64,000 bases of DNA from an uncultured delta proteobacterium. Lineage in GTDB: Bacteria; Desulfobacterota; Binatia; UBA9968. A program made the position numbers and the translations under genes. Position 1 is the first letter of the stretch; every line of letters begins with the position of its first letter. Shown piece by piece: positions 15,921-47,584 of this stretch. Under the pieces are notes generated by a model that saw nothing but the letters and a program-made list of their open reading frames with translations, had not been told where the DNA came from and did no database searches. Location of the stretch: NCBI GenBank assembly GCA_963840855.1, contig CAWJBB010000050.1:32001-96000 (forward strand), written 5' to 3'.

Positions 15921-16086
15921 TGTTAATCAATCAGTGGAAACTTTATTTTGAATTCTTTTCGACCCTTGCCGTGCGCCTTCCAAAAGACGATTTTTTGAGG
16001 AAAAAGAAACTTGATTTATTTCGGACAGGCTCTTGACTGGAAACCACGGAAGCGGGGTAACTCTTTGCTGACAAATAAGAAAAGGT

Positions 16087-16146
16087 TGGCGGAGAGGGAG
16101 GGATTTGAACCCCCGGTACGGTTCCCCGTACACTTGATTTCGAGTC
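16087..16146 (-). tRNA. 3' fragment of tRNA-Ser(CGA), from the anticodon loop to CCA; att-site duplicate
   Basis: Minus strand GACT-CGA-AATCAAGTG, long variable arm TACGG-GGAA-CCGTA, T-arm GGGGGTTCAAATCCCTC, CCTCTCCGCCA. No D-arm and no matching 5' anticodon-stem strand. Confidence 0.88.
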
Positions 16147-16249
16147 CCTACCCTCTCCCCTCGCATGCGCACCACAGACGGAAATAGACTACCAGCACAA
16201 GCAAGGTTCGCTGACTTCCACATCTGTTTTTGCACCGCGACGCCTACAG

Positions 16250-16387
16250 TTCTCGGACATTTCTCGGACAATTTCGGATGAGCGAAATGCTCTGGACTGG
16301 CACGCACCCTTGATTTCAAATCAAGTGGGCTACGTTAACTGCTGTTTATTATGAGGTATTTTACAAACTGTCCGTGAATTGTCCGTG
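16250..16387. other. Tyrosine-integrase attachment-region architecture (arm-type repeats around a tRNA-like core)
   Basis: TTCTCGGACA x2 (16250, 16261), core CTTGATTTCAAATCAAGTG (16309-16327), AT-rich spacer, inverted TGTCCGTG x2 (16369, 16380); 11-bp period. Confidence 0.6.
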
Positions 16388-16466
16388 TCTCTGCTTGTGT
16401 GAAGAAAAAAATTCGTACGCCCTACCCCCCAAAGAAAAAAAGGGTAAAAGATCAAAGGGCAAAGGA

Positions 16467-19148
16467 TTACGGAAGGTCCTGGGCAAGTCGAAAGCCGAGG
16501 TAGCTGATGCGGTCGTCGGCACTGGTCCTGCCGCCCCGGCCCGATGAACGCAGGGCCTCCGGGTCGTCGTCCCAGGAACCGCCGCGGAGCACACGCTCGA
16601 CGAACGATTTATCTATGTCCGTAGCACTTGGTCCAGCCGGGTTATCGTATTTGTTTATACACCATTCCCATACGTTTCCTGCCATATCGAGCACGCCCTG
16701 CCTCGTCGCTCCGTTCGGATAAACGCCCACGGCAGTTGTACGCCTCAGGTTACTTTCCAAACTGTTACATCGCGCCGCGTCCCACTCCGGGCCCCACGGA
16801 TACACGTTCTTTGCGTCACCTCCGGTCGTGGCTTGCTGCCACTCCCATTCCGCTGGTAATCGGACCTTCTTGCCAAGACGCGCGCTCAGCCAGCGGCAAA
16901 ACGCGACGGCCTCGTACCACGACACAGCTGTTCGTGGACTATTATTCTCCAGCCAAGTGGAACGAAGAGGCGCTGGGCTCGCCTCAATATTGTCCCACCA
17001 TTGCGGTTTGTGATAACCATCTTCCGCGTGAATAAAACTCTCGAACTGTGTATTCGTGACGAGATATCGCGAAATCCGAAACGAGTTCACCTCGAAAGTC
17101 TTTTCGACTCCTTCCAACTTCACGTTCCCCGCTGGAATAACGACCCAGTCAATGTCGGGAACGCCGTCTTCTGTTAAACCCACCCCGCGTCTCCGGTCGC
17201 CTAATGCGGCGAGATAGTGCCCAATGGTTAGTCGGTCCTGGTGTGATAGTAAGTCCTTGTGCAACCGCTGAAGCAATCGATCATGAGGCGCGACATATTC
17301 CCTCACGGCGGCGTCAATGCCGTGAGCGCCGACGCGATGCACGATTTCCCGCAGCCTGCCCAGCCGGTCGCTGTGCCATAAATATTGTAGGTCGTAGTCG
17401 TGTTTCACCCATTCTTTGGCTTCGATCTCCGCTTGGCGCAGCACAAAAAGATCGTCGCGGTTTTCAGCCACCCACCGGGTTAGAGCCGGCCAAGTCTCGA
17501 ACAACTTTTCGTGAGCGACAGAGACGGTGCTCTGCTTTCCCTCACCCTCAGCGGAAAGCAGTCGTTCTTTGCTCAAAATATCGACAATCGGGTGGAGATC
17601 GACCGCGAATGTTTCCTTTAATACACGCCGCCGTGTGGGTTGGCCGTCGATGTTGACCAAAACTAGCGGTTGAAAAATCTTGGGGAGCCAGGTATTCGGA
17701 TCGGAACCGACCTGCTTGGCAACCTGATCCTCAACCTTATTGACATGAGCGCCGATGGCGCCGGCGATACCGCCCAGGGCGTCATAAACGTTTTCGCTCA
17801 GCACATTGCCAGAGCGTTCTCGGAACAACCGCTCCAAGGCGAAAGCGAGCAGCGGTAAACTACCTGGCTCCGAGCCGGCATCTTGTATCAACCGGCGCAC
17901 GAGCCGATCTGGAATAGTAAGCGCCGCGCATTGGGCAGGTTTCACGATAATGTCAGCCATCATGTAGTTCTCCGCGCGTCCTAGCGGATAATGCCCGCTA
18001 CCGCGGAGCACCTTCAGAAGATCGTCATGCTCGTGACAATAATGCAAAAAATCGCTGCGAATTGTTGCGATGACTCGGAAGCTCGCTTCATTCACGGCTC
18101 TGAACAGAGCAGAGAGAAACGGTTCCGCGCGGTCTTTCGTTTGAACGGTGAACAACTCCTCCATCTGATCGAGAAACAATATCAAGCAATCGGCACTCAC
18201 GCCTTTAGTAATAATCGTTTTCAGGAGTTCCGAGAAGATGCCGGGCTCCGAAAGCAACCGCTGTCCCGATTCATATGAATTGACCCCAGCCCGCTCAGCC
18301 TCAGAGTGCAAGACACGCATGAGAGCATCGAAAGGATGACCGCCTTGGCTCGGCACCATGCGCTTGCATACGCAACTCACCATGCCGGTCAGGCCCAGCT
18401 CTTTTAGTTTCGGTAGTACGCCGGCATCAACGAGCGAAGACTTGCCGGTCCCGGAACCGCCGCTGATGATAAGGAACCGACCTTCCGCTTGACGCATCCG
18501 GTCGAGAACCTCCACGACCTCTGCGTCACGCCCGAAGAACACCGGTGCGTATTCGCGAGTGAAGTGCATCAGGCCGGGATACGGCGAGCCGTCTTTGTTG
18601 ATATCCCAGGTGATAGCGGGGGCTGATTCAGTTTTTTGCCGGGTGGTATCCTCGGTTGTCTTGTGTTGTTCCTGGTGCGTTGTAACGGCGGCAAGAACGA
18701 GCGCGGCAAGGTCATGCGGCGAGGAAAACAAGCTGGCCGTCTTCTCCGTGAGCAAATACTTCCGAAAGGAATTGATGCTCTCGCCCTTATCTTCCGCCTT
18801 TTGGGAATCCATGAAATCAGCCCGCCACGGTGTACTTTCGTTTACGACAAAAGTCAGGCAGGGCTTGCTAAGCCTCTCGGCTTGGCGAAATTCTAACTCA
18901 GTAATAGACAATTTGTCGGGATTTCCGTGTAATGCCGGCGGAACGTAACCGTAGCGAAAAGCAAAGATACCGACGTAAATATCAGTGTTCCTAACGTCCG
19001 TAAGACACTTGTCGACCGGGCGCTGGTCCGCAGCGACGTAATCCTCCATTGCGATAACATCATACCTGCTCTTGCGCAGGGTCTTATAAACAACCTCCCG
19101 ATATTCCTTAAGGTCTTCGTAAGTGGACGAGAGATAAATGGTCGTCAT
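16467..19148 (-). CDS. DUF4062 + nSTAND1 NTPase + FGE-sulfatase (CLec-fold) protein
   Basis: IYLSSTYEDLKEYR...GFRYG-like/SITELEF (DUF4062); PYPGL..F...FFGR, GGSGTGKSSL, LDQMEELF, LPLLAFAL, VAHE (nSTAND1); VTN.QF, RLPAEWEW, DMAGNVWEW, RGGSW, GFR (FGE). Confidence 0.9.
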   Translation of the reverse strand: MTTIYLSSTYEDLKEYREVVYKTLRKSRYDVIAMEDYVAADQRPVDKCLTDVRNTDIYVGIFAFRYGYVPPALHGNPDKLSITELEFRQAERLSKPCLTFVVNESTPWRADFMDSQKAEDKGESINSFRKYLLTEKTASLFSSPHDLAALVLAAVTTHQEQHKTTEDTTRQKTESAPAITWDINKDGSPYPGLMHFTREYAPVFFGRDAEVVEVLDRMRQAEGRFLIISGGSGTGKSSLVDAGVLPKLKELGLTGMVSCVCKRMVPSQGGHPFDALMRVLHSEAERAGVNSYESGQRLLSEPGIFSELLKTIITKGVSADCLILFLDQMEELFTVQTKDRAEPFLSALFRAVNEASFRVIATIRSDFLHYCHEHDDLLKVLRGSGHYPLGRAENYMMADIIVKPAQCAALTIPDRLVRRLIQDAGSEPGSLPLLAFALERLFRERSGNVLSENVYDALGGIAGAIGAHVNKVEDQVAKQVGSDPNTWLPKIFQPLVLVNIDGQPTRRRVLKETFAVDLHPIVDILSKERLLSAEGEGKQSTVSVAHEKLFETWPALTRWVAENRDDLFVLRQAEIEAKEWVKHDYDLQYLWHSDRLGRLREIVHRVGAHGIDAAVREYVAPHDRLLQRLHKDLLSHQDRLTIGHYLAALGDRRRGVGLTEDGVPDIDWVVIPAGNVKLEGVEKTFEVNSFRISRYLVTNTQFESFIHAEDGYHKPQWWDNIEASPAPLRSTWLENNSPRTAVSWYEAVAFCRWLSARLGKKVRLPAEWEWQQATTGGDAKNVYPWGPEWDAARCNSLESNLRRTTAVGVYPNGATRQGVLDMAGNVWEWCINKYDNPAGPSATDIDKSFVERVLRGGSWDDDPEALRSSGRGGRTSADDRISYLGFRLAQDLP

Positions 19149-19304: not shown

Positions 19305-20294
19305 TTAGAGTTCGGCCTCCAATACAACCTCACGCGGGTCTTTGTCTTGACGCAAGCCGACGAAAGCGGATTGCCGTAGATGGGCATCCGGCGTCCACTC
19401 GGCAAACTCGATTTGCGCTACCACCTCGGGCTTCACCCATGTGCAGTTTTTCATCTCTTCTTTCGTCAAAGCCCACTGCGTGCGCTTGCGTTCTGGCAGA
19501 TTGGCAAATGGACAGGTGGCGATTTCTAGGCCCCTCAGTTTGGCTGCTACCGCACGTCGGGTGTGCGGAACAAAGCCGTTTCGCACCTTGCCCGCGTACA
19601 ACAGTGTACCGTCTTGATAGTACCCGACGATGATGGAATCGATGGGATTGCCGGGAACGTATCCGCCGATTACGAGTTCTTGGCCTCGGTTGATGCGATA
19701 CTTGAGCCATGCACCGCTTCGCTTGCCGGATTCATAATACGAGTCCCTCCGCTTCGCGAGGATTCCCTCGAAGCCTAACTCTTTTGCGACGCGCACCAAC
19801 TCGGTAGGCGTGGCATCTATCGTTTCCGACAGGTTTAGGGGAGACGTTTTGGTACGGACTTTTTCAAATATTTCACCAAGGACCTTCCGCCGCTCTTTAA
19901 GAGGTACGTTCAATAGGCTCTTGCCCCGGCAGATGAGAACGTCGAAGGCGTAAAAGAGCAGTGCCTGTGCTTTTGAACGGTGGTGCTGAAGCAGATTGAA
20001 TGAGACCCGACCACTTTCATCGACGGCCACAACTTCGCCATCGAGAAGCGTATCGGCTGGGAGCCGTTCGCAGGCGCGGGCAATATGCGGGAACTGGGCG
20101 GTAAAGAGATTTCCTCGCCGTGACCAAAGCGTTACGCCATCGTTGCGTTTTCCAGCAAGGCATCGGTAGCCGTCCAGTTTTACCTCGTAGAGCCAGTCCT
20201 TGCCTTCGGGGAGGTTCTTGACGGCGAGCGCATACATGGGCTCGATGAAGCGGACTGCGCCGGGGACATCGCTTCTAGCCTTAGCTCTTCGCAT
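19305..20294 (-). CDS. ATP-dependent DNA ligase (LigD ligase domain / LigC-like), copy 1
   Basis: YEVKLDGYR, DGE, FDVL, EGILAKR, WLKYR; OB-fold WVKPEVVAQIEF. Confidence 0.93.
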   Translation of the reverse strand: MRRAKARSDVPGAVRFIEPMYALAVKNLPEGKDWLYEVKLDGYRCLAGKRNDGVTLWSRRGNLFTAQFPHIARACERLPADTLLDGEVVAVDESGRVSFNLLQHHRSKAQALLFYAFDVLICRGKSLLNVPLKERRKVLGEIFEKVRTKTSPLNLSETIDATPTELVRVAKELGFEGILAKRRDSYYESGKRSGAWLKYRINRGQELVIGGYVPGNPIDSIIVGYYQDGTLLYAGKVRNGFVPHTRRAVAAKLRGLEIATCPFANLPERKRTQWALTKEEMKNCTWVKPEVVAQIEFAEWTPDAHLRQSAFVGLRQDKDPREVVLEAEL

Positions 20295-20374
20295 GTGGAA
20301 CCTGGCAGGCTAAAGGCCCTTTGCCGACGGTGGTCCTAGTCTGCCTGACTGGCTATCAGTATGAGTCACGCATC

Positions 20375-21223
20375 TTAGTTGTTGTTGCCAGCATCCGTAC
20401 CACCGGTGTAAGGCACCTCAACCCCGCTCGTCAGATTGTCCCGAAACTTACCGCCTCCGCTCTCGAACTCAATCCCCGAAGCCATATTCGTGATACGGTT
20501 ATTTACGACCAAGACATCAGAGCCAGCAATGGTAATGCCCCGGGTACGTGGCGCGGTCGTTGGATTAATAACGCGATTGTTCTCTACCACGGCACTATTG
20601 CCATTCACGCGGATCGCGGACGCAAAATCAGTTCCAGTTCCGATTGTGAAGGTGTCAGATACGTCATTGTTGAGAAGCCTGCCACCGGAACCTAGAAAAG
20701 ATATGCCCGTACCCGCAGCACTAACCCCGACCGCCGCTGACCCACCGGTGAAAAAAACCGTGTTGTTCCGTATGATGCCGTTCTGGGCTTCGATACGGAT
20801 GCCCACAGATGTATTTCTCTCAGCTCGGATACTCTCTACAGTCGTTCCAAAACCGCTTATGTCAATCCCAACTAAGAAACCCCGCACCGTCCCGTTCCTG
20901 ATCGTAATGTTGTTAAGAAATGGCGCGTGGATACCTTTAGCCGTTGTTGCCACGTTTTGTGTTGTCGTTTGCCTTATTCCTTCAAGCGTAAACCCGTTCA
21001 GGTCTACTACCACATTTTCCACGTTAATGGTGATGGCGTTGAGAGTGGTGATCGCCATGCCCAAGTCGCGTTGGAGACAATACGTGCCCGGTACGGCGAT
21101 CGTCACGGGCAAAGAGATAATTTCGGTACAGTTTTCAGTCTGTGCTGAGGCAGTCGTCGCGCCAACTGCTACAAGCAAGGAACCACACAGAAAAGCCGCA
21201 GCTAATCGTCCTAAACTCTTCAT
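20375..21223 (-). CDS. Secreted right-handed beta-helix protein, copy 1
   Basis: Signal peptide, PGTYCL, DLNGFTL, IRNGTVRGF, Asn-ladder repeats; GGAGG RBS. Confidence 0.85.
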   Translation of the reverse strand: MKSLGRLAAAFLCGSLLVAVGATTASAQTENCTEIISLPVTIAVPGTYCLQRDLGMAITTLNAITINVENVVVDLNGFTLEGIRQTTTQNVATTAKGIHAPFLNNITIRNGTVRGFLVGIDISGFGTTVESIRAERNTSVGIRIEAQNGIIRNNTVFFTGGSAAVGVSAAGTGISFLGSGGRLLNNDVSDTFTIGTGTDFASAIRVNGNSAVVENNRVINPTTAPRTRGITIAGSDVLVVNNRITNMASGIEFESGGGKFRDNLTSGVEVPYTGGTDAGNNN

Positions 21224-21528
21224 AGCGAACCTCCTTTAGACCAGAATGGTGAGGAGACTAACTATCGTCGTAGCGGCTGTCAATGAGAAAAGACTTCCGA
21301 TGGGACGGGTGGCGTATGACAAGCGAGCAGCAATCCAGTTTCACTCGCAGCGGCGGTCGTACATTGCGTAATGCTGGCAGAATCGCAGGTACTCAACCCG
21401 GCTGGAGAATTGGGACTGCTCGTAGACCAGGCGCGGGCGGGATTCGTCGCTCAGCGGGCGAAAATAGCGGCGCAGAGAGCTACCACAAGAACAATCAATA
21501 TAATAATCGCCATAAAATTTTCTTTTCA

Positions 21529-22466
21529 TCAAGCGGAGTGAATCAAATGAAGAACAAGATAAGAATCAAATGAAGAACAAGATAAGAACCCAGAGCCGAA
21601 TAGACTATCGCTACGAAGGTCAAGCCCCGAAGCGGCACCATCGGTCGGTAACGACCAATCGAATGGCGTGACAACGTCGCCGCTCCGCGTGCAGATCACC
21701 GCGACGTGCTCGCCGGACTGCCGGTCGATGCTGTCCACTAGCCCCACCGCATTGGCCGCGAATGCACGGGCAAGCGTTTTGAAGTTCGGTAGGTGGCTTG
21801 CACTATCGTTTTTCTTTTCATTCGTCCTCCTTTCATAATTCAACTCTCTTTTTTTTCGGAGCCGCGGCGGCGGACACGTCGCCGATCTCGTTGTGCGCGT
21901 TCAGGACGCTGAACACGGTTATCCTCTTCTCATAGGCGAGGCTGCTGGTCCGTATCTCCTTCTTCGGAGACCAGCCCAACTTTGTGGCCATGCGGTTTAT
22001 GCAGGGGTTGGAACAATAGCCGCGCCAATCAGCCTTGTTTTTCGGATCATACGGCTTGTGGCACGACCGGCATCGAAGCAGTAATGCGCTCATTGCTGCA
22101 CCATGAAATCCTGGTTCGCCAGTTCCAACTCGTCGCGCAGCACCGATAATTGAAGAAATAGGTTGAGGCTCAAAAGCTCTCGAAGAGTCATCACGTCGCC
22201 CTCGCTGGTTGCGAAACGGACGTGGTGTCGAGTCGTTGAGAGATGGACCCCGGTACGATTATCTTTTTTGCTTGAAAGTATGCCGCCATCAGGGCAACGA
22301 AGGTGCAAATCCCGATGACCGTCAATCCAAGATGAACGATGCCCCGAAGCGGTGCCTCGCCGCTCAATTCTTTGCGCAGCGAGATGAGCAGGACGAAAAG
22401 TAGTGCTAAAAGCGCAATAGCGATTGTGGTGTGACTGATGGCCTTGAGTGCGAGTTCCGGTTGCAT
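21529..22466 (-). other. Cluster of small overlapping phage-like ORFs (including CRSC...YCSNPC zinc-finger ORF 21833-22093), copy 1
   Basis: Translationally coupled short ORFs; nearly identical to 43520-44465. Confidence 0.55.
21540..21585. repeat. 23-bp tandem duplication GAATCAAATGAAGAACAAGATAA x2
   Basis: Only a single diverged unit is present in the paralogous region at ~43465. Confidence 0.85.
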
Positions 22467-23358
22467 CGAGTTTGGCTCTCAGTGAAAGGTGCTTGACCCT
22501 CGTCCTAATGCCATAAGGAAAAGCACCGCTCTTTTCTGCTTTTCCTCAAGTGACAAGCGTTCTGCTGTGCGGTCTCCATGTCTAGGGACTAATGCCGCGC
22601 CGTCGTCGCTGAAAATCCAATAGCGTAGCCACGCTTGACGAAGAGAGTATTTTTTGCCTTTGCAGGGCTTGAAAGAAGATGCGCCACGGGAGCAATGTTG
22701 TCGGCATCGAGGAAGTCCCCCGATGACACATAAAGCCAATGGCGTGCCGTGCCGATTTGACGTGTATTGGCGAATTGTGTTCGCAAAAACACACCTTTGC
22801 CGCGTGCTTAAGGGGAGGTCACTTCGGGCGCGAATTAACGAACGGGTGTTTTGGCCCTGTCAGAACTGACCGCAAAGGTGCCACCCCTGCTCGCAAATTG
22901 CGTCGAATTTTTATGGCTTACACGCAGGCGAGGGCAATACTGAAAGAGTTAAGGAAATTGCAAAAGAGGGCTAGAGAGAAACTGAAGTAGAAATCTTCGG
23001 CCCGGCCAGCGTTGGCGTGCGCTGTATTGCCGGGCCATTGAAAGGGGGCCAGCTGTGAGTCCAGCCGCACCTTTCGGGGCGCTTTATAGCACGTTCCCCA
23101 CCTTTGCGAAATAGGGTTGGTCTAAGCCTCACGTTGGCCCAAAACCCCGAGTGAATTGGATCAACCTATACCATTTTCCGCAGGCCACTATTATTTCTTG
23201 ACTCCCCATTCCCACCAGTGTTATTGCCTCTCTTACAACCTAGTTAGCCCTCGTCTTCTGGATAGACTTTCCTACTTAGTGCGGCCTCTACACTTTGATG
23301 GGCTTACACCGGGTCATTGTTAAGCCGTCTTCAAATAATTGTTGAGGGAGGGTTTTAT

Positions 23359-24522
23359 ATGTTTAGCCATTCTACCAACACGGCTTCGTTTTTCTCCGTC
23401 CTTATGGCTGCGCTCATTTTCTCGCTGTCTCTGGCGGGGGTTGCTTGGGCGCAGGGCAACACCAGTTTTGGGACAGGCGCGCTTCAGAGTAACACTACAG
23501 GGAGCTTTAACACCGCCATCGGACTGAACGCGCTCTTTAGCAACTCTATTGGCAACTTCAACACTGCCAGCGGAGGCCAGGCACTCGTTAGCAACACCGA
23601 GGGTATCCAGAACACCGCCAGTGGAGTCAATGCGCTTTTTAGTAACACTAGCGGCAGCTTCAACACTGCCAGCGGCGTCAGTGCGCTCGTTTTCAATACC
23701 ACGGGCGAGCAGAACACCGCCAGCGGCGTCAATGCGCTCTTTAGTAACACCACGGGCAACCTCAACACCGCCAGCGGATTCCAGGCGCTCTCTAGCAACA
23801 CCGACGGCAGCCTCAACACCGCCAGCGGAGTCAATGCGCTCATTAACAACACCACGGGCAACTTCAACACCGCCAGCGGAGTCAATGCGCTCATTAACAA
23901 CACCACGGGCGCCGTCAACACCGCCATCGGAGTCGCTGCGCTCTTTAGCAATACCGAGGGCGGCGGCAACACCGCTATCGGATTCAACGCCAATGTGTCT
24001 ACTGGGAATCTGACTAACGCTACGGCTATCGGCACTGGAGCCACCGTCAATGCTAGCAATAAGATCCGCCTGGGAAGTACTTTTGTCACGGTGATCGAAG
24101 GGGAGGTGGCATTTACTTTCTCTTCGGACAAGACCCAGAAGGAAAACTTCCAGCCGGTCGATGGAGAAGAAGTGCTGGGGAAGATTCGGGGCTTGGAGCT
24201 ATCGAGCTGGAACTTAATTGGCCACGATCCTAAGAAGTTTCGCCACTATGGCCCGATGGCGCAGGACTTCTATGCAGCCTTCGGCCACGACGGATTAGGA
24301 CAGATCGGCTCGGAGACGACGATCAACTCGGGCGACCTGGCGGGGATTCTTATGATCGCCGTGCAGGCGCTGGAGAAGCGCACGGCGGAGCTAAAACAGA
24401 AGGAGGCGCAGATGGCTGTGCTGGAATCGCGGTTGGAGGCACTAGAGTTGCGAAATAATCACTCTATCCAGATAACAGCCGGGAAAAACCTCGGCGACAA
24501 GATGGTCGACGTTATGCCGTAA
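23359..24522 (+). CDS. Secreted 17-aa-repeat protein with C-terminal peptidase S74 intramolecular chaperone (tail-fibre-like), copy 1
   Basis: About 10 NTASGxxALFSNTTG repeats; SDKTQKEN, HYGPMAQDF, coiled-coil tail. Confidence 0.85.
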   Translation: MFSHSTNTASFFSVLMAALIFSLSLAGVAWAQGNTSFGTGALQSNTTGSFNTAIGLNALFSNSIGNFNTASGGQALVSNTEGIQNTASGVNALFSNTSGSFNTASGVSALVFNTTGEQNTASGVNALFSNTTGNLNTASGFQALSSNTDGSLNTASGVNALINNTTGNFNTASGVNALINNTTGAVNTAIGVAALFSNTEGGGNTAIGFNANVSTGNLTNATAIGTGATVNASNKIRLGSTFVTVIEGEVAFTFSSDKTQKENFQPVDGEEVLGKIRGLELSSWNLIGHDPKKFRHYGPMAQDFYAAFGHDGLGQIGSETTINSGDLAGILMIAVQALEKRTAELKQKEAQMAVLESRLEALELRNNHSIQITAGKNLGDKMVDVMP

Positions 24523-24609
24523 GTGAATAATAAGGGTGAAAAAATCTTCCTGGAGGTTTTTGAACTTTACGGACAGAATGTATTCCTCGAGTGGGAAGGC
24601 CAGAATCAG

Positions 24610-24653
24610 CCTGAGATTGAACTGAACGACGCAACGGATAAATCTCACAGGAT
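24610..24653. repeat. 70-bp dyad element: left arm plus centre
   Basis: CCTGAGATTGAACTGAACGACGCAACGGATAAATCTCACAGGAT. Confidence 0.85.
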
Positions 24654-24688: not shown

Positions 24689-25000
24689 TTAACGCTCGGC
24701 CTCCCGTACAACCTCACGTGGGTTTTTGTCTTCTCGCAGGCCGACGAAAGCTGATTGCCGTAGATGCGCGTCCGGTGTCCACTCGGCAAACTCGATCTGC
24801 GCCACTACTTCGGGCTTCACCCATGTGCAGTTTTTCATCTCTTCCTTCGTTAAAGCCCACTGGGTGCGCTTGCGCTCTGGCAGATTCGCAAATGGACAGG
24901 TGGCGATTTCTAGGCCCCTGAGCTTGGCTGCTACCGCACGGCGGGTGTGGGGAACAAAGCCGTTTCGCACCTTGCCCGCATACAACAGTGTGCCGTCCTC
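24689..25000 (-). pseudogene. ATP-dependent ligase C-terminal (OB-fold) fragment, copy 3
   Basis: DGTLLYAGKVRNGF...EVVREAER is near-identical to copies 1 and 2; catalytic domain missing. Confidence 0.9.
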
Positions 25001-41200: not shown

Positions 41201-42190
41201 TTACCTTTCCACCTCCCGCACAACCTCACGCGGGTCTTTGTCTTCTCGCAAGCCGACGAAACTAGCGTTCCGTAGATGCGCGTCCGGCGTCCACTCGGCA
41301 AACTCGATCTGCGCGACCACCTCGGGCCTTACCCATGTGCAGTTTTTCATCTCTTCTTTTGTCAAAGCCCACTGGGTGCGCTTTCGTTCTGGCAGATTCG
41401 CAAATGGACAGCTGGCGATTTTTAGTCCCCCGAGCCTGGCTGCTACCGCACGTCGGGTGTGCGGAACAAAGCCGTTTCGCCCCTTGCCCGCGTACAACAG
41501 TGTGCCGTCTTGATAGTACCCGACGATGATGGAATCTATGGGGTTTCCCGAAACATATCCGCCGATCACTAACTCTTGGCCTCGGTTGATGCGATACTTG
41601 AGCCACGCACCGCTTCGTTTGCCGGATTCATAATACGAGTCCCTCAGCTTGGCGAGGATTCCCTCGAAGCCTAACTGTTTTGCGACGCGCACCAACTCGG
41701 TCGGCGTGGCATCAATCGTTTCTGACAGCTTTATGGGGAAATCTTTGCTACGGACTTTTTCAAATATTTCACCAAGGACCTTCCGCCGCTCTTTAAGCGG
41801 TACGTTCAAGAGGCTCTTGCCCCGGCAGATTAGAACGTCGAAGGCGTAAAAGAGCAGCGCCTGTGCTTTTGAACGATGATGCTGAAGAAGATTGAATGAG
41901 ACCCGACCACTTTCATCGACGGCCACAATTTCGCCATCGAGAAGCGTATCGGCTGGGAGCCGTTCGCAAGCGCGGGCAATATGCGGGAACTGGGCGGTAA
42001 AGAGATTTCCTCGCCGTGACCAAAGCGTTACGCCATCGTTGCGTTTTCCAGCAAGGCACCGGTAGCCGTCGAACTTTACCTCGTAGAGCCAGTCCTTGCC
42101 GGCGGGAAGCTGTCGCAGCGCAAGCGCATACATCGGCTCGATGAAGCGGACGGCGGCTTCCGGCTGGCTGCTACGTTTGACTCTTCGCAT
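41201..42190 (-). CDS. ATP-dependent DNA ligase (LigD ligase domain / LigC-like), copy 2
   Basis: YEVKFDGYR and other motifs; highly similar to 19305-20294. Confidence 0.93.
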   Translation of the reverse strand: MRRVKRSSQPEAAVRFIEPMYALALRQLPAGKDWLYEVKFDGYRCLAGKRNDGVTLWSRRGNLFTAQFPHIARACERLPADTLLDGEIVAVDESGRVSFNLLQHHRSKAQALLFYAFDVLICRGKSLLNVPLKERRKVLGEIFEKVRSKDFPIKLSETIDATPTELVRVAKQLGFEGILAKLRDSYYESGKRSGAWLKYRINRGQELVIGGYVSGNPIDSIIVGYYQDGTLLYAGKGRNGFVPHTRRAVAARLGGLKIASCPFANLPERKRTQWALTKEEMKNCTWVRPEVVAQIEFAEWTPDAHLRNASFVGLREDKDPREVVREVER

Positions 42191-42304
42191 TCATGCGCCG
42201 ACAGTCGGGCGCGCCTGGTAACGAATTACCGACCCATTGCGGCCCGCCTGGTAAACGGTGATTCAATCCGCGAATTTGGCTGACGGGATCGATTTTAGCT
42301 CGTC

Positions 42305-43156
42305 CTAGTTATTATTGCCCGCGTCCGTGCCACCTGTGTAAGGAACGGCGACTCCGCTCGTCAGATTGTCCCGAAATTTTCCGCTTTGGACGGTGAACTC
42401 AATCCCCGACGCCATGTTTGTAATGCGATTGTTAACGACCAACACATCAGACCCCGCAACGATAATACCCCCGGTGCGGGGCCTGGGAGGCGATATAGTA
42501 TTGCTGAGGCGATTATTTTCTACGACGGCGTTATCGGCATTAACTGCAATCGCAAATGCGCCTCCAGTTCCTTGTGCGTTGGTGTCAGTCACGTCATTGT
42601 TGAGAGCGCGGACACCAGAACCGGAGAGAAATATGCCCGTGGACGAAGAACCTGGCAGGGACACGTTGCCTGGTCCCGTGCTTACGATCATGTTGTTGCG
42701 AATGATGCTGTGCCGGTTGCTAACACGGATACCTACCGATGTATTGAGGTCAACGCGGACATTTTCTATGACACACACAGAGCCGAAGCTGATGTTAATG
42801 GCAGTAAAAAATCCCCGCACCGTTCCGTTCTTGACCGTGATGTTATTGCGTAAAAACGCGAAAATCCCTTGAGCCTGTGTTCCTATATTTTCCGATGTCA
42901 GTTCGGTCAATCCTCCAAGAGTAAACCCGTTTAAGTCTATCACGACGTTGTCCGCCGCGATATTGATGGCATTGACAGTGGTGATCGGCGTGCTCAGGTC
43001 ACGTTGGAGACAGTAAGTGCCCGGTATGGTGATAGTCACGGGGAGAAAGTCAATTTCGGCACAGTTTTCAGTCTGTGCTGAGGCAGTCGTCGCGCCAACT
43101 GCTACAAGCAAGGAACCACACAGAAAAGCCGCAGCTAATCGTCCTAAACTCTTCAT
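42305..43156 (-). CDS. Secreted right-handed beta-helix protein, copy 2
   Basis: First 32 aa identical to copy 1; diverged core; conserved C-terminus. Confidence 0.85.
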   Translation of the reverse strand: MKSLGRLAAAFLCGSLLVAVGATTASAQTENCAEIDFLPVTITIPGTYCLQRDLSTPITTVNAINIAADNVVIDLNGFTLGGLTELTSENIGTQAQGIFAFLRNNITVKNGTVRGFFTAINISFGSVCVIENVRVDLNTSVGIRVSNRHSIIRNNMIVSTGPGNVSLPGSSSTGIFLSGSGVRALNNDVTDTNAQGTGGAFAIAVNADNAVVENNRLSNTISPPRPRTGGIIVAGSDVLVVNNRITNMASGIEFTVQSGKFRDNLTSGVAVPYTGGTDAGNNN

Positions 43157-43273
43157 AGCGAACCTCCTTTAGACCAGAATGGTGAGGAGACTAACTATCG
43201 TCGTCGCGGCTGTCAATGAGAAAAGACTTCCGATGGGACGGGTGGCGTATGACAAGCGAGCAGCAATCCAGTT

Positions 43274-43438
43274 TCACTCGCAGCGGCGGTCGTACATTGC
43301 GTAATGCTGGCAGAATCGCAGGTACTCAACCCGGCTGGAGAATTGGGACTGCTCGTAGACCAAGCGCGGGAAGGGGCCGCAACCGACGAAAATAGCGGCG
43401 CAAAGAGCTACGGCGAGAACCATCGATGTAATATTCAT
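43274..43438 (-). CDS. Small lipoprotein absent from the ORF track
   Basis: MNITSMVLAVALCAAIFVGCGPFPRLVYEQ...RRCE; lipobox FVGC; AAAGGA RBS. Confidence 0.55.
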   Translation of the reverse strand: MNITSMVLAVALCAAIFVGCGPFPRLVYEQSQFSSRVEYLRFCQHYAMYDRRCE

Positions 43439-43521
43439 GGTATTTTCCTTTCATCAAGCGGAGTGAATCAAATGGAAAACAAGATACAAGCCTAGGACCG
43501 AATAGACGATGGCCACGAAGG

Positions 43522-44706
43522 TCAAGCCCCGAAGCGGCACCATCGGTCGGTAACGACCAATCGAATAGAATAGGCAGCCAGTTGCAGTGCTTGTCTCACC
43601 GTTTGTTTTCCGAGTGAGTTGACACCGGCGAGACCGATGACGCAGTCCCACATTGTCAGCGGCACATTTTTATAATGCTGCTGGATGGCGTACTTCGTCG
43701 ACATCGGATTCGCCGTTTTGACGAAAAGTATTCGTCCTCCTTTCATAATTCAACTCTCTTTTTTTTCGGGCCGCGTCGGCGGACACGTCGCCGATCTCGT
43801 TGTGCGCGTTCAGGACGCTGAACACGGTTATCCTCTTCTCATAGGCGAGGCTGCTGGTCCGTTTCTCCTTCTTCGGAGACCAGCCCAACTTTGTGGCCAT
43901 GCGGTTTATGCAGGGGTTGGAACAATAGCCGCGCCAATCAGCCGTGTTTTTCGGATCATACGGCTTGTGGCACGACCGGCATCGAAGCAGTAATTCGCTC
44001 ATTGCTGCACCATGAAATCCTGGTTCGCCAGTTTCAACTCGTCGCGCAGCACCGCTATCGCTTCGAGCGCCGTTGGCGAGGCGCACTCCATCATGTCGTC
44101 CAAGGCGCCGCGAGACAGGATGAAATAGGACGCGGTTCCGTCAAATAGCTGGAGAAACAGGTTGAAGCCCAAAAGCTCTCGAAGAGTCATCATGTCGCCC
44201 TCGCTGGTTGCGAAACGGACGTGGTGTCGAGTCGTTGAGAGATGGACCCCGGCACGATTATCTTTTTTGCTTGAAAGTATGCCGCCATCAGGGCAACGAA
44301 GGTGCAAATCCCGATGACCGCCAATCCAAGATGAACGATGCCCCGAAGCGGTGCCTCGCCGCTCAATTCTTTGCGCAGCGAGATGAGCAGGACGAAAAGT
44401 AGTGCTAAAAGCGCAATAGCGATTGTGGTGTGACTGATGGCCTTGAGTGCGAGTTCCGGTTGCATCGCGGTTGGCCCTTCAATGCAAGGTTTCTGGCCAT
44501 TTGCTTTTTGCCTTAAAGAGCCATGTTGCTATCTTCTCCCTTTCCTGAAGTGACGAGGACTCTGCCGTGCCGTCTTTATTTCTGGGGAGTAATGCCGCGC
44601 CGTCGTCGCTGAAAATCCAATAGCGTAGCCACGCTTGACGAAGAGCGTATTTTTGCCTTTGCAGGGCTTGAAAGAAGATGCGCCACGGGAGCAATGTTGT
44701 CGGCAT
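43522..44706 (-). other. Cluster of small phage-like ORFs, copy 2
   Basis: Near-identical to 21830-22710, with indels and a replaced distal segment. Confidence 0.55.
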
Positions 44707-44909
44707 CGCGGAAGTCCCCCGATAACACGTAAAGCTAATGCTGTGCCGTGCCGATTTGACGTGTATTGGCGAACCGTGTTCCCAAAACCCCGCTTTTGCC
44801 GCGTGTTTGACGGAGGTTATTTCGGGCGCGAATTCACAAACGGGTGGTTTGGCCCTGTCAGAACTGACCGCAAAGCGCCGCCTCTGCTCGCAAATTGCGT
44901 CGAATTTTT

Positions 44910-45671
44910 ATGAATCACACGAGACAGCGAAAACACGTCACACTGCGCGCTCGACGAGACCTCGATAGCGATGACGGCATACAGTTTGTGCGCTGCCAGA
45001 TTTGCCGTGACTGCCTTCGCGTAATAAGCGGTCGCCACCTTTCAAAGCATGACACCGACCGTGAAACGTACATGGAGGCGTACGGTCTCAGCCCGGATGA
45101 ACTGATCGCCAAGGATTTTCGGATCATTCAAAGCTCACGCCGTGGGTATTCCGCGCACGGTAAGAGCGACTGGATCGCTGCGATCAAGAAAGTCTACGAA
45201 CAAGACGGCAATGTTTTTGCCAGGTATCTACAAGAAAAGCACCCGCACCTGTATAACCAAGGCACTTGGATTTTCGGCGATTGGGATAAAGCTCTGCGTG
45301 CAGCAGGCTTCGACCCAGAGCGGATGCGGAAACAAGGTTCATGGGACGATGAAAGAATCGTCAAAGAAATACGCGCCATGCGACATCAGAGTCTGCCACT
45401 CTACGCAAGATACGTGCTGATGAATCATACGAAATTGTTTTCTGCGGCACGACGCCAATACGGATTGTGGAGCAAGGCATTGATTGCCGCCGGCATTAAC
45501 GCGGCACAGGCGTCGGGAAAGTTGTACAAGAGCCCTCGCGGTGTTTTAAGAGCACTCAGCGACGCTCTAAAGAGACATACAGCAAACGATATTCCAAAGG
45601 TGCTAAAGTTACAGGCAGCGCATTATTTTGGAAGCCTAAGTAAGGCCATCACTGCGTTGGAAAAGGATTAA
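44910..45671 (+). CDS. Putative DNA-binding protein: MucR/ROS-like C2H2 finger + three FG.W..AL.AAG-type repeats
   Basis: CQIC...HLSKH...Y...YGL; FGDWDKALRAAG, YGLWSKALIAAG, FGSLSKAI. Confidence 0.65.
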   Translation: MNHTRQRKHVTLRARRDLDSDDGIQFVRCQICRDCLRVISGRHLSKHDTDRETYMEAYGLSPDELIAKDFRIIQSSRRGYSAHGKSDWIAAIKKVYEQDGNVFARYLQEKHPHLYNQGTWIFGDWDKALRAAGFDPERMRKQGSWDDERIVKEIRAMRHQSLPLYARYVLMNHTKLFSAARRQYGLWSKALIAAGINAAQASGKLYKSPRGVLRALSDALKRHTANDIPKVLKLQAAHYFGSLSKAITALEKD

Positions 45672-45721
45672 AGACTGCTATGTGGTGGAGCAAGCGTGGG
45701 ATGAATGCTGATTGTTTTGTA

Positions 45722-45742
45722 GGAGAAATCAGTTCAATCCTG
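45722..45742. repeat. Dyad element right arm
   Basis: GGAGAAATCAGTTCAATCCTG; the following bases resemble those after the 62531 copy. Confidence 0.85.
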
Positions 45743-45885
45743 CGATCGCGGCTAAGCGTTTCACTGTCTAATTTCGCGGTGCTTTGCTGTGCGCCCTATC
45801 CCGCCCGGTTGACTTTTTAGCGTGTCAAGAATAGAAGGCCCTTCTGCTCGTCGAGTGCCTTAAATGCACAAAAGGAGGGTTTGAT

Positions 45886-47301
45886 ATGTTTAACCGTTCT
45901 ACCATCATGGCGTCGTTTTTCTCCGTCATTGTGGCTGGGCTCATTTTCTCGCTCTCTCTAGCAGGGGTTGCTGCGGCGCAGAGCAACACCCGCCTGGGGA
46001 TAGGCGCACTTCAGAACAACACCACGGGCGAGCAGAACACCGCCATCGGGAACAATGCGCTCTTTAGCAACACCACGGGCAACGGCAACACCGCCAGCGG
46101 ATTCGATGCGCTCTTTGCCAACACCACGGGCAATTTCAACAGCGCCAGCGGTTTCCAGGCGCTCTTTAGCAACAACGGCGACGGCAACACCGCCAGCGGA
46201 TTCCGTGCACTCTTTGCCAACATCACGGGCATCAACAACACCGCCAGTGGGGCTAATGCGCTCTTTAGCAACACCACGGGCAGCCACAACACCGCCAGCG
46301 GACTCAATGCGCTCTTTAGCAACACCACGGGCAGCGACAACACCGCCAGTGGAGTCAATGCGCTCTTTAGCAACATCACGGGCATCAACAACACCGCCAG
46401 CGGACACAGGGCGCTCTTTAGCAACACCACGGGTGAAGCCAACACCGCCACCGGACTCGATGCGCTATTTAGCAACACCACGGGCAGCCTCAACACCGCC
46501 CTCGGTCTCCAAGCGCTCTTTAGCAACACCACGGGTGAAGCCAACACCGCCACCGGACTCGCTGCGCTCACTAACAACACCACGGGCAGCAGCAACACCG
46601 CTACCGGATCCAGCGCGCTCATTCTCAACACCACGGGTGAAGCCAACACAGCCAGCGGAAACAATGCACTCACTAACAACCGCACAGGCGGCAACAACAC
46701 AGCCATCGGAGTTGGTGTGCTCGATAACAACATCACGGGCAGCAACAACACCGCCATCGGGTTTGCAGCCAATGTGTCTGCTGGGGATCTGGTAAACGCT
46801 ACGGCTATCGGCAGTAGTGCCATCGTCAATGCCAGCAATAAGATCCGCCTGGGAAACGGTGACGTCACGGTGATCGAAGGGCAGGTGGCGTTTACTTTCC
46901 CTTCGGACAAGACCCAGAAGGAAAACTTCCAGCCGGTCGATGGAGAGGAAGTGCTGGGAAAGATTCGCGGCTTTGAGCTGTCGAGCTGGAACTTCATTGG
47001 CCACGATCTTAAGAAGTTTCGCCACTATGGTCCCATGGCGCAGGACTTCTATGCAGCCTTCGGCCACGACGGATTGGGACAGATCGGCTCGGAGAAGACG
47101 ATCAACTCGGGCGATCTGGCGGGGATTCTAATGATCGCCGTGCAGGCGCTGGAGAAGCGCACGGCGGAGCTAAAACACAAGGAGGCGCAGATTGCTGCGC
47201 TGGAATCGCGGTTGGAGGCGCTAGAGTTGCGAAATAATCACTCTATCCAGATAACAGCCGGGAAAAACCTCGGCGACAAGATGGTCGACGTGATGCCGTA
47301 A
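45886..47301 (+). CDS. Secreted 17-aa-repeat protein with peptidase S74 chaperone, copy 2
   Basis: About 15 repeats; C-terminal domain nearly identical to copy 1. Confidence 0.88.
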   Translation: MFNRSTIMASFFSVIVAGLIFSLSLAGVAAAQSNTRLGIGALQNNTTGEQNTAIGNNALFSNTTGNGNTASGFDALFANTTGNFNSASGFQALFSNNGDGNTASGFRALFANITGINNTASGANALFSNTTGSHNTASGLNALFSNTTGSDNTASGVNALFSNITGINNTASGHRALFSNTTGEANTATGLDALFSNTTGSLNTALGLQALFSNTTGEANTATGLAALTNNTTGSSNTATGSSALILNTTGEANTASGNNALTNNRTGGNNTAIGVGVLDNNITGSNNTAIGFAANVSAGDLVNATAIGSSAIVNASNKIRLGNGDVTVIEGQVAFTFPSDKTQKENFQPVDGEEVLGKIRGFELSSWNFIGHDLKKFRHYGPMAQDFYAAFGHDGLGQIGSEKTINSGDLAGILMIAVQALEKRTAELKHKEAQIAALESRLEALELRNNHSIQITAGKNLGDKMVDVMP

Positions 47302-47375
47302 GTGAATAATAAGAATTAAAAAAACAGTCTGATCTCCCCTGGAGGTTTTTGAACTTTACGGACAGAATGTATTCC

Positions 47376-47423
47376 TCGAGTGGAAAAACCAGATTTTTAG
47401 CCTGAGATTGAACTGAACGACGC
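47376..47423. repeat. Dyad element left arm with conserved leader
   Basis: TCGAGTGGAAAAACCAGATTTTTAGCCTGAGATTGAACTGAACGACGC. Confidence 0.85.
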
Positions 47424-47584
47424 GACGTTTCAATCATATCACTGTTAGATCATCCGTACCGTGCTATAGTGTGTGGCCCAATCTCCATAGTCTTTATAAA
47501 ACTCAAATAATCCCACCGCTTGGCCATACGATCCCACTCCCTGGCCCCTTTATTTCCTCGCCATCTTGATAACGCTTTTCGAGA

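Follow-up and report, generated by a model that had tools for sequence, protein, structure and literature searches.

A probable DGR-derived variable region, orphaned in its assembly, on a predicted NADase-STAND sensor

The intact gene on the minus strand at 16467..19148 of the window, by which we mean the whole 64,000-nucleotide stretch of Binatia DNA analysed here, appears to encode a NADase-STAND sensor that carries a genuine DGR-derived variable region (VR), orphaned in the assembly. The binding specificity of such a sensor would be fixed, unless a retroelement on DNA outside the assembly still rewrites it. Our preferred reading, towards which we lean without great confidence, is that of an intact NLR-like sensor with a DGR-written tip whose machinery has been lost, so that the VR is an orphan relic of recent diversification. 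A sequence-only reading of this locus had proposed a DGR-type VR that is diversified in trans or is a relic of such diversification, and the adenine footprint, the concentration of ortholog variation in the VR and the presence of homologs with DGRs in cis all support that proposal. The NADase and defence roles given to the sensor are, throughout, claimed from homology.

A STAND sensor gene and its lectin tip

The gene, delimited from the open reading frames and their translations, encodes 893 amino acids, and a Pfam search of this translation gives the domain order DUF4062, nSTAND1 and FGE-sulfatase/C-type lectin, with all three domains matched as had been proposed from the letters. DUF4062, the predicted effector, covers residues 4–90 (18879..19139, minus strand; PF13271, 78.5 bits, model positions 2–82 of 82), the nSTAND1 NTPase module covers residues 189–585 (17394..18584, minus strand; PF20703, 292 bits, E 1.3e-86), and the FGE-sulfatase/C-type-lectin-fold domain covers residues 667–889 (16482..17150, minus strand; PF03781, 145 bits). 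The central module belongs to nSTAND1 by its profile match, its intact P-loop motifs and its position, with the effector on its N-terminal side and the sensor on its C-terminal side; the Walker A-like GSGTGKS and the Walker B-like LFLDQMEE are both invariant in the homolog alignment. Within DUF4062, all 12 aligned homologs keep T83, L85 and E86 unchanged, and this invariance makes E86 a candidate catalytic glutamate of the predicted NADase, the characterised DUF4062 glutamates being those of the E97, E98, E103 and E108 proteins. The sensor is a single polypeptide, no partner genes were identified, and no family of PADLOC-DB 2.0.0 matched the gene at E<=0.01. In the predicted mechanism, binding of a ligand at the lectin tip would lead to NTP-dependent oligomerisation of nSTAND1, the oligomers would activate the DUF4062 NADase, and the NADase activity would result in NAD+ depletion and abortive infection.

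The FGE domain falls far under the cut-offs of all five NCBIfam enzyme equivalogs compared with it, the best being EgtB at 78 bits against 360, and the closest solved chain is that of ToxD (7spq; E 1.5e-26). The DGR variable protein TvpA of Treponema denticola (PDB 2y3c) is a weak match at E 5e-7. It is alike in its fold family and in the C-terminal position of its VR, but STAND and effector modules are lacking. TvpA, a lipoprotein, is served by a cis DGR of its own.

The VR itself lies at the C-terminal end of the lectin-fold domain, where codon-by-codon alignment with the TRs of homologous DGRs places it at 16497..16592 (minus strand, ~100 nt, residues V853–L884, that is, 853–884 within 667–889), and the adenine-derived variable codons fall inside these limits. 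The codon string on which the sequence-only reading was built, TCC TGG GAC GAC GAC CCG GAG GCC CTG CGT TCA TCG GGC CGG GGC GGC AGG ACC AGT GCC GAC GAC CGC ATC AGC TAC CTC GGC TTT CGA, is indeed present on the minus strand, from ~16577 down to 16488, among the last codons of the 893-aa ORF. When the VR is compared with 18 heterologous TR entries (17 distinct TRs) from homologous loci, none of them cognate, mismatches are enriched at TR adenines in 18 of 18 comparisons, with one-sided Fisher p values from 0.067 to 2.7e-8. Specifically, the VR departs from the L080 TR at 20 of 35 adenine positions and 7 of 86 others (p 2.7e-8), from the L048 TR at 17 of 31 and 9 of 84 (p 2.4e-6), and from the L038 TR at 18 of 29 and 11 of 85 (p 8e-7). 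Likewise, among the 12 VR codons aligned to template AAC or AAT, the third base is C in 11 and T in one; the probability of at least 11 of 12 ending in C is 8e-4 given the encoded amino acids and the codon usage of the gene outside the VR, and 1.8e-5 for the same count under the plain third-position C frequency of 0.305. The footprint of adenine mutagenesis that had been read from the NNC and NNT codons is therefore borne out by both counts.

Relative to the TRs the VR holds one codon more, in the pair GGC GGC (G872–G873; 16530..16535, minus strand), which appears as a 3-nt gap in the alignments with the L048, L080 and L051 TRs and is included in the gap counts of the other TRs. Of the ten homologs whose alignment extends to this column, eight lack the extra codon and two, P0010 and P0013, share the longer form, and we infer that the additional GGC is a tandem duplication. 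Beyond the VR, the gene closes with a constant 3′ stretch, GGC TTT CGA CTT GCC CAG GAC CTT CCG TAA (16467..16496, minus strand), as is evident when TR/VR pairs are set side by side; TR homology stops after ..GCCCAG, and the divergence of the TRs at this point marks an IMH-like boundary.

The pyrimidine tract CCTTTGCCCTTTGATCTTTTACCCTTT comes right after the TAA stop, and comparison of homolog loci delimits a conserved pyrimidine-rich repeat element of 36 nt directly after the stop, TCCTTTGCCCTTTGATCTTTTACCCTTTTTTTCTTT (16431..16466, minus strand). The same element occurs after the stop in homolog loci of other phyla, RT-linked and RT-less alike, and the earlier suggestion that such a tract is a feature of CLec DGR targets holds in that the element is conserved in the target family. 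In its strict form the motif occurs in 10 of the 48 gene ends that a systematic search located, compared with 33 of 24125 background windows; the gene-end locator missed the Nitrospira-type RT-linked loci, and the count of 0 of 9 RT-linked loci with the motif is an artefact of which loci were located. A hairpin after the pyrimidine tract is strong in the RT-linked locus L080 (z -4.5) and absent in the window (z -0.18), in L026 and in L075. By eye this hairpin is not universal among RT-linked loci, and we give it little weight.

Farther downstream, ~310 nt from the sensor gene and outside it, is a tRNA-like 3′ fragment (16087..16158, minus strand) whose T-arm, acceptor and CCA are recognisable in the sequence and which has weak Rfam tmRNA/tRNA-like matches. 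ARAGORN called no tRNA at this fragment, a large spike in word depth covers 16042–16162 in four of four sequencing runs, and the fragment is possibly an integration scar. The sensor gene abuts this tRNA-like remnant and a duplicated ligase/tail-fibre-like module. The idea that the gene stands first in an island has only loose support from these neighbours. In contigs from two of the runs, position 16388 adjoins 19324 (X2) and 16393 adjoins 19304 (X4), which would mean that the gene is absent there; the sides of these junctions are 30–34 nt at 85% likeness, and we take them as a hint only.

Variation among near-identical copies and the DGRs of homologous loci

Among near-identical copies of the sensor, hypervariability is confined to the VR. 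The ortholog P0002, 96% identical overall, agrees with the sensor at 764 of 779 of residues 1–779 (98%), at 62 of 73 of residues 780–852 just upstream of the VR (85%), at 19 of 31 positions in the VR (61%) and at 9 of 9 after it; this comparison, like those with P0003, P0004 and P0122, was made at the protein level. Because the VR differs at 12 of 31 positions from an ortholog that is otherwise 98% identical, diversification in this lineage appears to be recent. At the nucleotide level, a contig from run X1, which derives from another sample, matches the flanks at 16368–16501 (2 differences) and 16605–16779 (5 differences in 175 nt), and between them it has 100 unlike letters where the window has 103 (16502–16604). 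The runs were compared as assembled contigs, which cannot display within-population variants, and each run contained at most 0.13 of the sampled words. Furthermore, in P0122, the third member of the 90% cluster, the tail reads as a shifted frame of an AAC-rich, TR-like stretch.

The wider family links this variation to DGRs. A family search returned 1435 matches, and most of the best 120 of these 1435 share the same four-family Pfam architecture; the closest homolog DNA in scans of genomes and metagenomes consists of full-length loci that are 55–63% identical at best. Across 159 homolog loci a DGR RT is present in 19 and Avd in 25, and some homologs are targets of complete cis DGRs, with bAvd, RT and TR sitting directly downstream of the target; in L080 and L048 these cassettes are confirmed by Pfam (bAvd, 67 bits; RVT_1, 70 bits). 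An A-biased TR/VR pair lies at the gene end in 13 of the 67 homolog loci that have at least 500 nt of downstream flank, and at least 48 of these 67 have no cis RT or TR in reach. Four loci (L040, L046, L063 and L075) have Avd without RT despite 7–10 kb of flank. Relatives of the sensor thus have both TR with RT and A-biased variation, the two features on whose presence in relatives or homologs the sequence-only reading had staked its proposal.

Nearer relatives of the organism give a sparser picture. Among 40 genomes drawn from the organism's genus, family and order, none has an ortholog of the sensor gene at E<=1e-50, so that synteny is not usable. A DGR RT of the same clade occurs in 3 of the 40 (G012, G028 and G037), and the four same-genus genomes have no DGR-grade RT, their best scores being ~80–111 bits versus 417–483 bits for true matches. 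In the genomes with the closest homologs, RVT_1 has zero matches in two of five (G041 and G045), and the RT loci of the other three (G042–G044) have no TR match to the VR loci of the TR-less homologs. A TR acting in trans was also sought in the five genomes with the closest TR-less homologs by BLAST with the L080 TR; the 69–90% matches obtained resemble VRs, those at 86–90% cover just 31–37 nt, and we rejected them.

The search for DGR machinery and the competing explanations

The assembly comprises 7.1 Mb in 93 contigs and is 94% complete with 8% contamination. Sequence, profile and tblastn searches found no TR, DGR RT or Avd–RT remnant either in the locus or in this assembly, in agreement with the sequence-only reading, which had seen none in view. 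BLASTn of the VR against the assembly, the check that reading had recommended, returned the VR itself alone; an adenine-tolerant scan of all 93 contigs for a cognate TR gave a best score of 49/60 with 30 exact, and a scan of the assembly for TR-like AAC-rich tracts gave none, only two unrelated repeats. The RVT_1 search of the assembly matched one frameshifted RT fragment, on contig C87, that we read as group-II-intron-like, and a DGR-RT protein (17.6 bits) and a 10-sequence DGR-RT profile (30 bits) both scored best in the assembly at this same fragment. With RT and Avd as tblastn queries, the assembly gave no RT at E<=1 and one weak Avd match (E 0.40, contig C60). As a positive control, RVT_1 recovered RTs in five of five DGR-bearing genomes, and in two of the five (G046 and G047) it was the cassette RT itself that was placed, at ~71 bits.

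No Avd remnant was found in the window. The ORF at 15927–16319 was considered as one and rejected, as it has no Pfam or NCBIfam match, a BLASTP E of 8.8 and an overlap with the tRNA-like fragment. Likewise, the sole match above cut-off to PF22296 (bAvd) in the assembly, at C12:2482-2796, is a better match to 23S_rRNA_IVP (102 bits), and its vicinity lacks an RT. TR/VR-type repeats tend to break assemblies, and this one would not show a TR–RT cassette that was carried by an unbinned contig, a plasmid or a phage.

It is worth considering whether the locus has any DGR history, since an ordinary FGE-sulfatase loop under mutation and selection might come to resemble AAC templates through GC-rich codon usage. 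FGE-sulfatase domains share the RGGSW...GFR frame across the family (Pfam; ToxD alignment), the template adenines lie at ligand-contact codons, so that variation is expected there in any homolog, and this genome has no detected TR or RT. Nonetheless, we find this explanation scarcely credible: selection on amino acids leaves the third-base C in 11 of 12 codons unexplained (P 8e-4), 79 of 86 non-adenine positions are identical to the L080 TR although the TRs come from other phyla, RT-linked loci have the same constant 3′ end and the same non-coding element after the stop, and ortholog identity drops from its 98% level to 61% within 32 codons, then returns to 100%. That fall might instead reflect recombination, in which C-terminal cassettes are swapped between alleles rather than written by retrohoming, and residues 780–852, which a DGR would leave untouched, have also diverged from P0002 (85% against 98% for the body). 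However, the divergence peaks sharply in the 32 TR-homologous codons and gives way to 9 of 9 identity, the X1 contig has just 5 differences over the 175 nt upstream of the VR, and the VR differences between P0001 and P0002 are, in our reading against the family TRs, at codons with template adenines; we consider cassette swapping improbable.

More serious, and in our view a real possibility though not the leading one, is that the VR is still diversified in trans by an Avd–RT–TR system of the same cell that lies on missing DNA, be it an unbinned contig, a plasmid or a prophage. The VRs of the window, P0002 and the X1 contig are unlike one another, whereas their remaining sequence agrees at ~98%; P0122 has a TR-like, AAC-rich version; the VR's 3′ end and the post-stop element have been preserved just as at loci with an RT; the assembly, in 93 contigs, falls short of completeness (94%); and 3 of 40 relatives have an RT of this clade. 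In addition, trans activity on remote targets is reported for Thiohalocapsa PB-PSB1 (PMC10907252), and Kaur 2020 (PMC7159879) mentions TRs located "elsewhere in the genome". Against this, independent searches of 7.1 Mb give no TR, RT or Avd–RT with a control that succeeded in 5 of 5, none of the four same-genus genomes has a DGR-grade RT, the VR is one codon longer than its closest relatives and the aligned TRs shown, and the L080-type hairpin is missing in the window, a comparison of one locus with one locus. We judge a relic somewhat more likely than diversification in trans from unassembled DNA, because Avd persists without RT in L040, L046, L063 and L075, because G041 and G045, two of the five genomes with the closest homologs, have no RVT_1 match, and because fresh retrohoming would overwrite the extra GGC codon. 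Arguing the other way, the length with the extra codon is common to 2 of 10 homologs and may thus reflect a longer TR rather than decay, and the 12 of 31 VR differences from a 98%-identical ortholog fit a DGR that is still present somewhere. In our preferred reading, an AAC-rich TR was reverse-transcribed with errors at adenines and copied into the gene tip; bAvd, RT and TR are now gone from the locus and are not in the assembly either, which leaves the VR without its machinery and most likely fixed in a single specificity.

A broader and more speculative form of the relic reading, which we think unlikely as it stands, is that DGRs act in a hit-and-run manner across the DUF4062–nSTAND1–lectin family, being transiently active and then lost, and leaving dispersed sensors of fixed specificity that are mobile as single-gene units. 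The post-stop element would then serve as a docking signal for re-arming in trans by any incoming DGR of the clade, and the gene in the window would be dormant and re-armable. If this were true, dormancy would be the prevailing state in the family (at least 48 of 67 loci).

Relation to known systems and significance

The DGR-diversified STAND–lectin kind of protein is already published (Doré 2024, PMC10907252; Kaur 2020, PMC7159879). Doré et al. (PNAS 2024, PMC10907252) describe STAND (nSTAND1/NACHT)–C-type-lectin proteins as "putative antigen sensors" diversified by DGRs, and the sensor examined here is like theirs in its central nSTAND1, its C-terminal FGE-type CLec with the VR at the end and its N-terminal effector; remote targets without a local RT or TR are described there as well. 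It differs in that no TR or RT was found in the assembly and in its DUF4062 head, a domain with zero mentions in the main text of PMC10907252, whose supplements may list such heads. One homolog locus in our set, L072, comes from the organism of that study and has one TR with two VRs. Kaur, Burroughs, Iyer and Aravind (eLife 2020, PMC7159879) describe FGS-domain conflict systems coupled to DGRs and read them as invader sensors in NTPase-centred conflict systems, in which the FGS/FGE lectin is always C-terminal, the VR is hypervariable and the TR lies nearby "or elsewhere in the genome"; in contrast to the present sensor, their focus is on vWA–MoxR ternary systems, and "nSTAND1" and "DUF4062" have zero mentions in the main text.

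At the other end of the protein, DUF4062, or "NIR", domains are reported as TIR-like NADase effectors, including that of a DUF4062-headed Avs2 STAND, with a conserved glutamate necessary for NADase activity and defence (bioRxiv 10.64898/2026.05.01.722283 and 10.64898/2026.09.04.749371). Like the present protein, these STAND proteins carry DUF4062 ahead of the NTPase and a sensor at the C-terminus, but there phage portal or terminase is recognised by TPR or other repeats, whereas here the sensor appears to be a DGR-written lectin tip; the terms "diversity-generating", "FGE", "sulfatase" and "lectin" have zero mentions in the main texts of the two preprints.

Nothing in bacteria comes closer to an anticipatory receptor repertoire than the DGR-written lectin tips of NLR-like STAND proteins. 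To our knowledge, no such tip on an NLR-like STAND protein has been tested experimentally. The present locus indicates that a DGR footprint can be recognised and statistically tested even where the retroelement itself is missing, by means of the TRs of homologs, and the non-coding post-stop element provides a concrete candidate for a target-recognition signal. The DUF4062 NADase head, a function assigned only in 2026 preprints, would be the effector of a very large family of DGR targets. Given that many members of this family have no DGR in reach, it becomes a testable question whether their orphan VRs are frozen specificities or remote targets.

The diversified tip of the sensor gene

The codon string quoted by the sequence-only reading is present but lies on the minus strand, where it forms the final codons of an intact 893-aa ORF (16467-19148), and the pyrimidine tract that it described directly follows the TAA stop. 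Pfam places DUF4062 at residues 4-90 (78.5 bits), nSTAND1 at 189-585 (292 bits) and FGE-sulfatase at 667-889 (145 bits) of the product, and Walker A-like GSGTGKS and Walker B-like LFLDQMEE motifs can be read from the translation; PADLOC gave no match for the gene. According to two 2026 preprints (bioRxiv 10.64898/2026.05.01.722283 and 10.64898/2026.09.04.749371), DUF4062 is a TIR-like NADase effector whose function hinges on a catalytic glutamate, among other cases when it is part of a STAND protein; E86 of this domain is unchanged in all 12 homologs aligned. Judging from these domains, the sensor would likely bind a ligand with its lectin tip, after which nSTAND1 would oligomerise and NAD+ depletion would follow.

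The template repeats (TRs) of homolog loci are similar across taxa, and the window's variable region (VR; 16497-16592, minus strand, residues 853-884) can be aligned to them codon by codon. Mismatches were tallied by template base against 18 TR entries (17 distinct TRs). Adenines are mismatched at 20/35 positions versus 7/86 for other bases with the TR of locus L080 (p 2.7e-8), at 17/31 versus 9/84 with that of L048 (p 2.4e-6) and at 18/29 versus 11/85 with that of L038 (p 8e-7); the excess has the same direction in 18/18 entries, the weakest being L133 (p 0.067). Because template adenines fall on ligand-contact codons, selection alone could inflate this excess, and synonymous sites were therefore also tested. 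The 12 AAC-aligned codons of the window VR (GAC GAC GAC GCC GGC GGC ACC AGT GAC ATC AGC TAC) carry C at the third base in all but one case (11/12; P = 8e-4, conditional on the amino acids encoded and on codon usage in the rest of the gene). TR homology stops after ..CTTGCCCAG, and the window goes on GACCTTCCGTAA, exactly like the VR of L048. The A-biased mismatches and third-base C retention bear out the proposal of a DGR-type VR at the tip of the STAND gene and, on this comparison of sequences, identify it as a VR of the homolog-DGR type.

Homologous genes as DGR targets

A search of 5.8 billion proteins gave 1435 matches to the window gene; most of the 120 matches listed share its four-family Pfam architecture, and the source names among them include Nitrospira, Desulfuromonadales, Thiorhodococcus, Endothiovibrio and others. 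No ortholog was found at E<=1e-50 in 40 related genomes (same genus, family or order), and the gene is therefore accessory in this lineage.

The comparison covered homolog loci of species genomes (79) and of metagenomes (80), with one contig present twice (L058 and L114). Self-BLAST repeats with at least 75% of mismatches on A (or T) revealed TR/VR pairs in 17 loci, and the VR lies at the end of the homologous gene in 13 of the 67 loci that have the FGE-domain end and a downstream flank of at least 500 nt (12/60 with at least 1500 nt, 7/52 with at least 3000 nt); these counts are a lower bound because L058/L114, with an RT and an AAC-rich tract, escaped the filter. As tblastn queries, the RT and Avd of L080 matched 19/159 and 25/159 loci, respectively. 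The cassette order in L080 and L048 is target (891 or 930 aa), bAvd (119 aa, PF22296, 67 bits), RT (360 aa, RVT_1, 70 bits) and TR. Homologs of the window gene are true DGR targets.

Eight loci have a bAvd match without an RT match (L040, L046, L063, L075, L113, L117, L132 and L156), the first four with a downstream flank of 7-10 kb; they resemble DGR cassettes in decay next to intact targets. Elsewhere, a stand-alone 223-aa ORF (L189; G044:C2:917219-917320, minus) has an AAC-rich template-like tract in its C-terminal end, which represents either a VR without mutations or a TR inside an ORF; RVT_1 found no DGR-type RT in that genome.

An orphan variable region

The observation that no TR or RT was in view extends to the whole assembly (7.1 Mb, 93 contigs, 94% complete), where BLASTn of the VR, the check then proposed, matched only the VR itself. 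An ungapped scan for a TR, with template A allowed to pair with anything, reached at best only 49/60 (30 exact), and a scan for AAC-rich tracts yielded two unrelated repeats and no TR. The sole RVT_1 match, and the lone RT remnant of the genome (G000), is a frameshifted fragment at C87:47523-48111 (L009, L199, L203), a pseudogene, since its parts lie in at least three different frames, and by our reading apparently group-II-intron-like. Searches with a DGR-RT protein and with a profile built from 10 RTs of the family matched only this fragment (17.6 and 30 bits, respectively); tblastn gave no RT match at E<=1 and a single weak Avd match (E 0.40, contig C60). The one match of bAvd grade, on contig C12, is better explained by 23S_rRNA_IVP, and no RT adjoins it. 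As a control, the same RVT_1 search recovers RTs in 5/5 DGR-bearing genomes, and in two of them, G046 and G047, the cassette RT could be located (about 71 bits).

Near-identical copies of the gene differ most at the VR. The ortholog P0002, 96% identical overall to the window protein (P0001), agrees at 764/779 of residues 1-779, 62/73 of residues 780-852, 19/31 of the VR (853-884, one gap) and 9/9 of the last nine residues; the differences within the VR appear, when read against family TRs, to sit at codons containing template adenines. In run X1, a 628-nt contig (depth 3.3) agrees with the window at 16368-16501 (2 differences) and at 16605-16779 (5 differences); between these flanks it has 100 unlike letters where the window has 103. 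The third member of the 90% cluster, P0122 (440 aa, N-terminally short), has a tail without in-frame alignment that matches a shifted frame of the TR/VR stretch, its GTTN and GTGT runs being the products of AAC codons in that frame. From its protein sequence, P0122 would be a frameshifted, TR-like allele, possibly a pseudogene overwritten recently by its TR.

Just upstream of the VR, residues 780-852 (window 16593-16811) are 85% identical to P0002, versus 98% for the protein body. DGRs do not alter this stretch; co-adaptation of neighbouring surface loops or recombination may have raised the divergence.

We lean towards regarding the orphan VR as a relic, frozen after loss of its DGR, because TR, RT and Avd-RT are absent from the assembly searches. 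Also counted for this are the Avd matches without RT in L040, L046, L063 and L075 despite 7-10 kb of flank; the lack of an RVT_1 match in two (G041, G045) of the five genomes with the closest homologs; an extra GGC codon inside the window VR, missing from the TRs in the displayed alignments and from 8/10 aligned homologs reaching that column; and the absence at the window of a strong hairpin of the L080 kind. Diversification in trans, by a DGR on DNA outside the assembly, is a less probable but serious alternative: VR alleles differ among genes 98% alike, so that diversification was recent, the post-stop element is still kept at the window gene, and the genome is known from a binned assembly that is incomplete. 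Doré 2024 (PMC10907252) documents remote targets on which a DGR acts in trans. Of 40 relatives, G012, G028 and G037 have true DGR RTs of the same clade (417-483 bits); G009 and G015, both unpublished, are also in this tally, and no result here rests on them.

Surroundings and relation to known sensors

Downstream of the window gene lie a conserved post-stop element, a tRNA-like fragment and convergent metabolic genes. The element (16431-16466, minus) is non-coding and made up of three pyrimidine-rich repeats, approximately CCCTTTG-yyCTTTG-tyCTTTTACCCTTT; it is conserved across phyla just behind the stop codon of the target family, at RT-linked and RT-less loci alike (L026, L031, L032, L037, L039, L056, L063, L075, L113, L038, L043, L047, L048, L051, L054, L080, L058), and gammaproteobacterial-type loci have CACTGA-like repeats in this position. 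The element may serve as a signal for DGR target recognition or for regulation. The tRNA-like 3' fragment (16087-16158, minus) has a T-arm, acceptor and CCA, lacks a D-arm and is Ser-like by eye; ARAGORN called no tRNA there. A second hairpin, resembling an anticodon arm, follows after 150 nt (16290-16330), and the region shows a huge word-depth spike in 4/4 runs. The fragment may be a scar of integration where the accessory region borders the rest.

The STAND gene directly adjoins the first copy of a duplicated 5.3-kb module (19324-24636 versus 41220-47427, 78-98% identity) that carries, besides small ORFs, genes for an ATP-dependent DNA ligase, a beta-helix protein resembling NosD and a tail-fibre-like Peptidase_S74 protein that contains internal repeats; the ligase end occurs a third time, in partial form, at 24700-24997. 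Contigs of the unrelated runs X2 (soil) and X4 (freshwater sediment) have joins at 16388/19324 and 16393/19304 that skip 2.9 kb, taking out the entire STAND gene along with promoter and post-stop element. Because the junction sides are only 30-34 nt, this is a hint, rather than a result, that the gene may be a single-gene insertion.

DGR-written nSTAND1-lectin sensors have already been published (Doré 2024, PMC10907252; Kaur 2020, PMC7159879), and the window gene is of that known kind. A link between DUF4062 and DGRs is absent from the main texts of both papers and of the two bioRxiv reports. The interest of the window gene lies in the orphan state of its VR and in the conserved element behind its stop codon.
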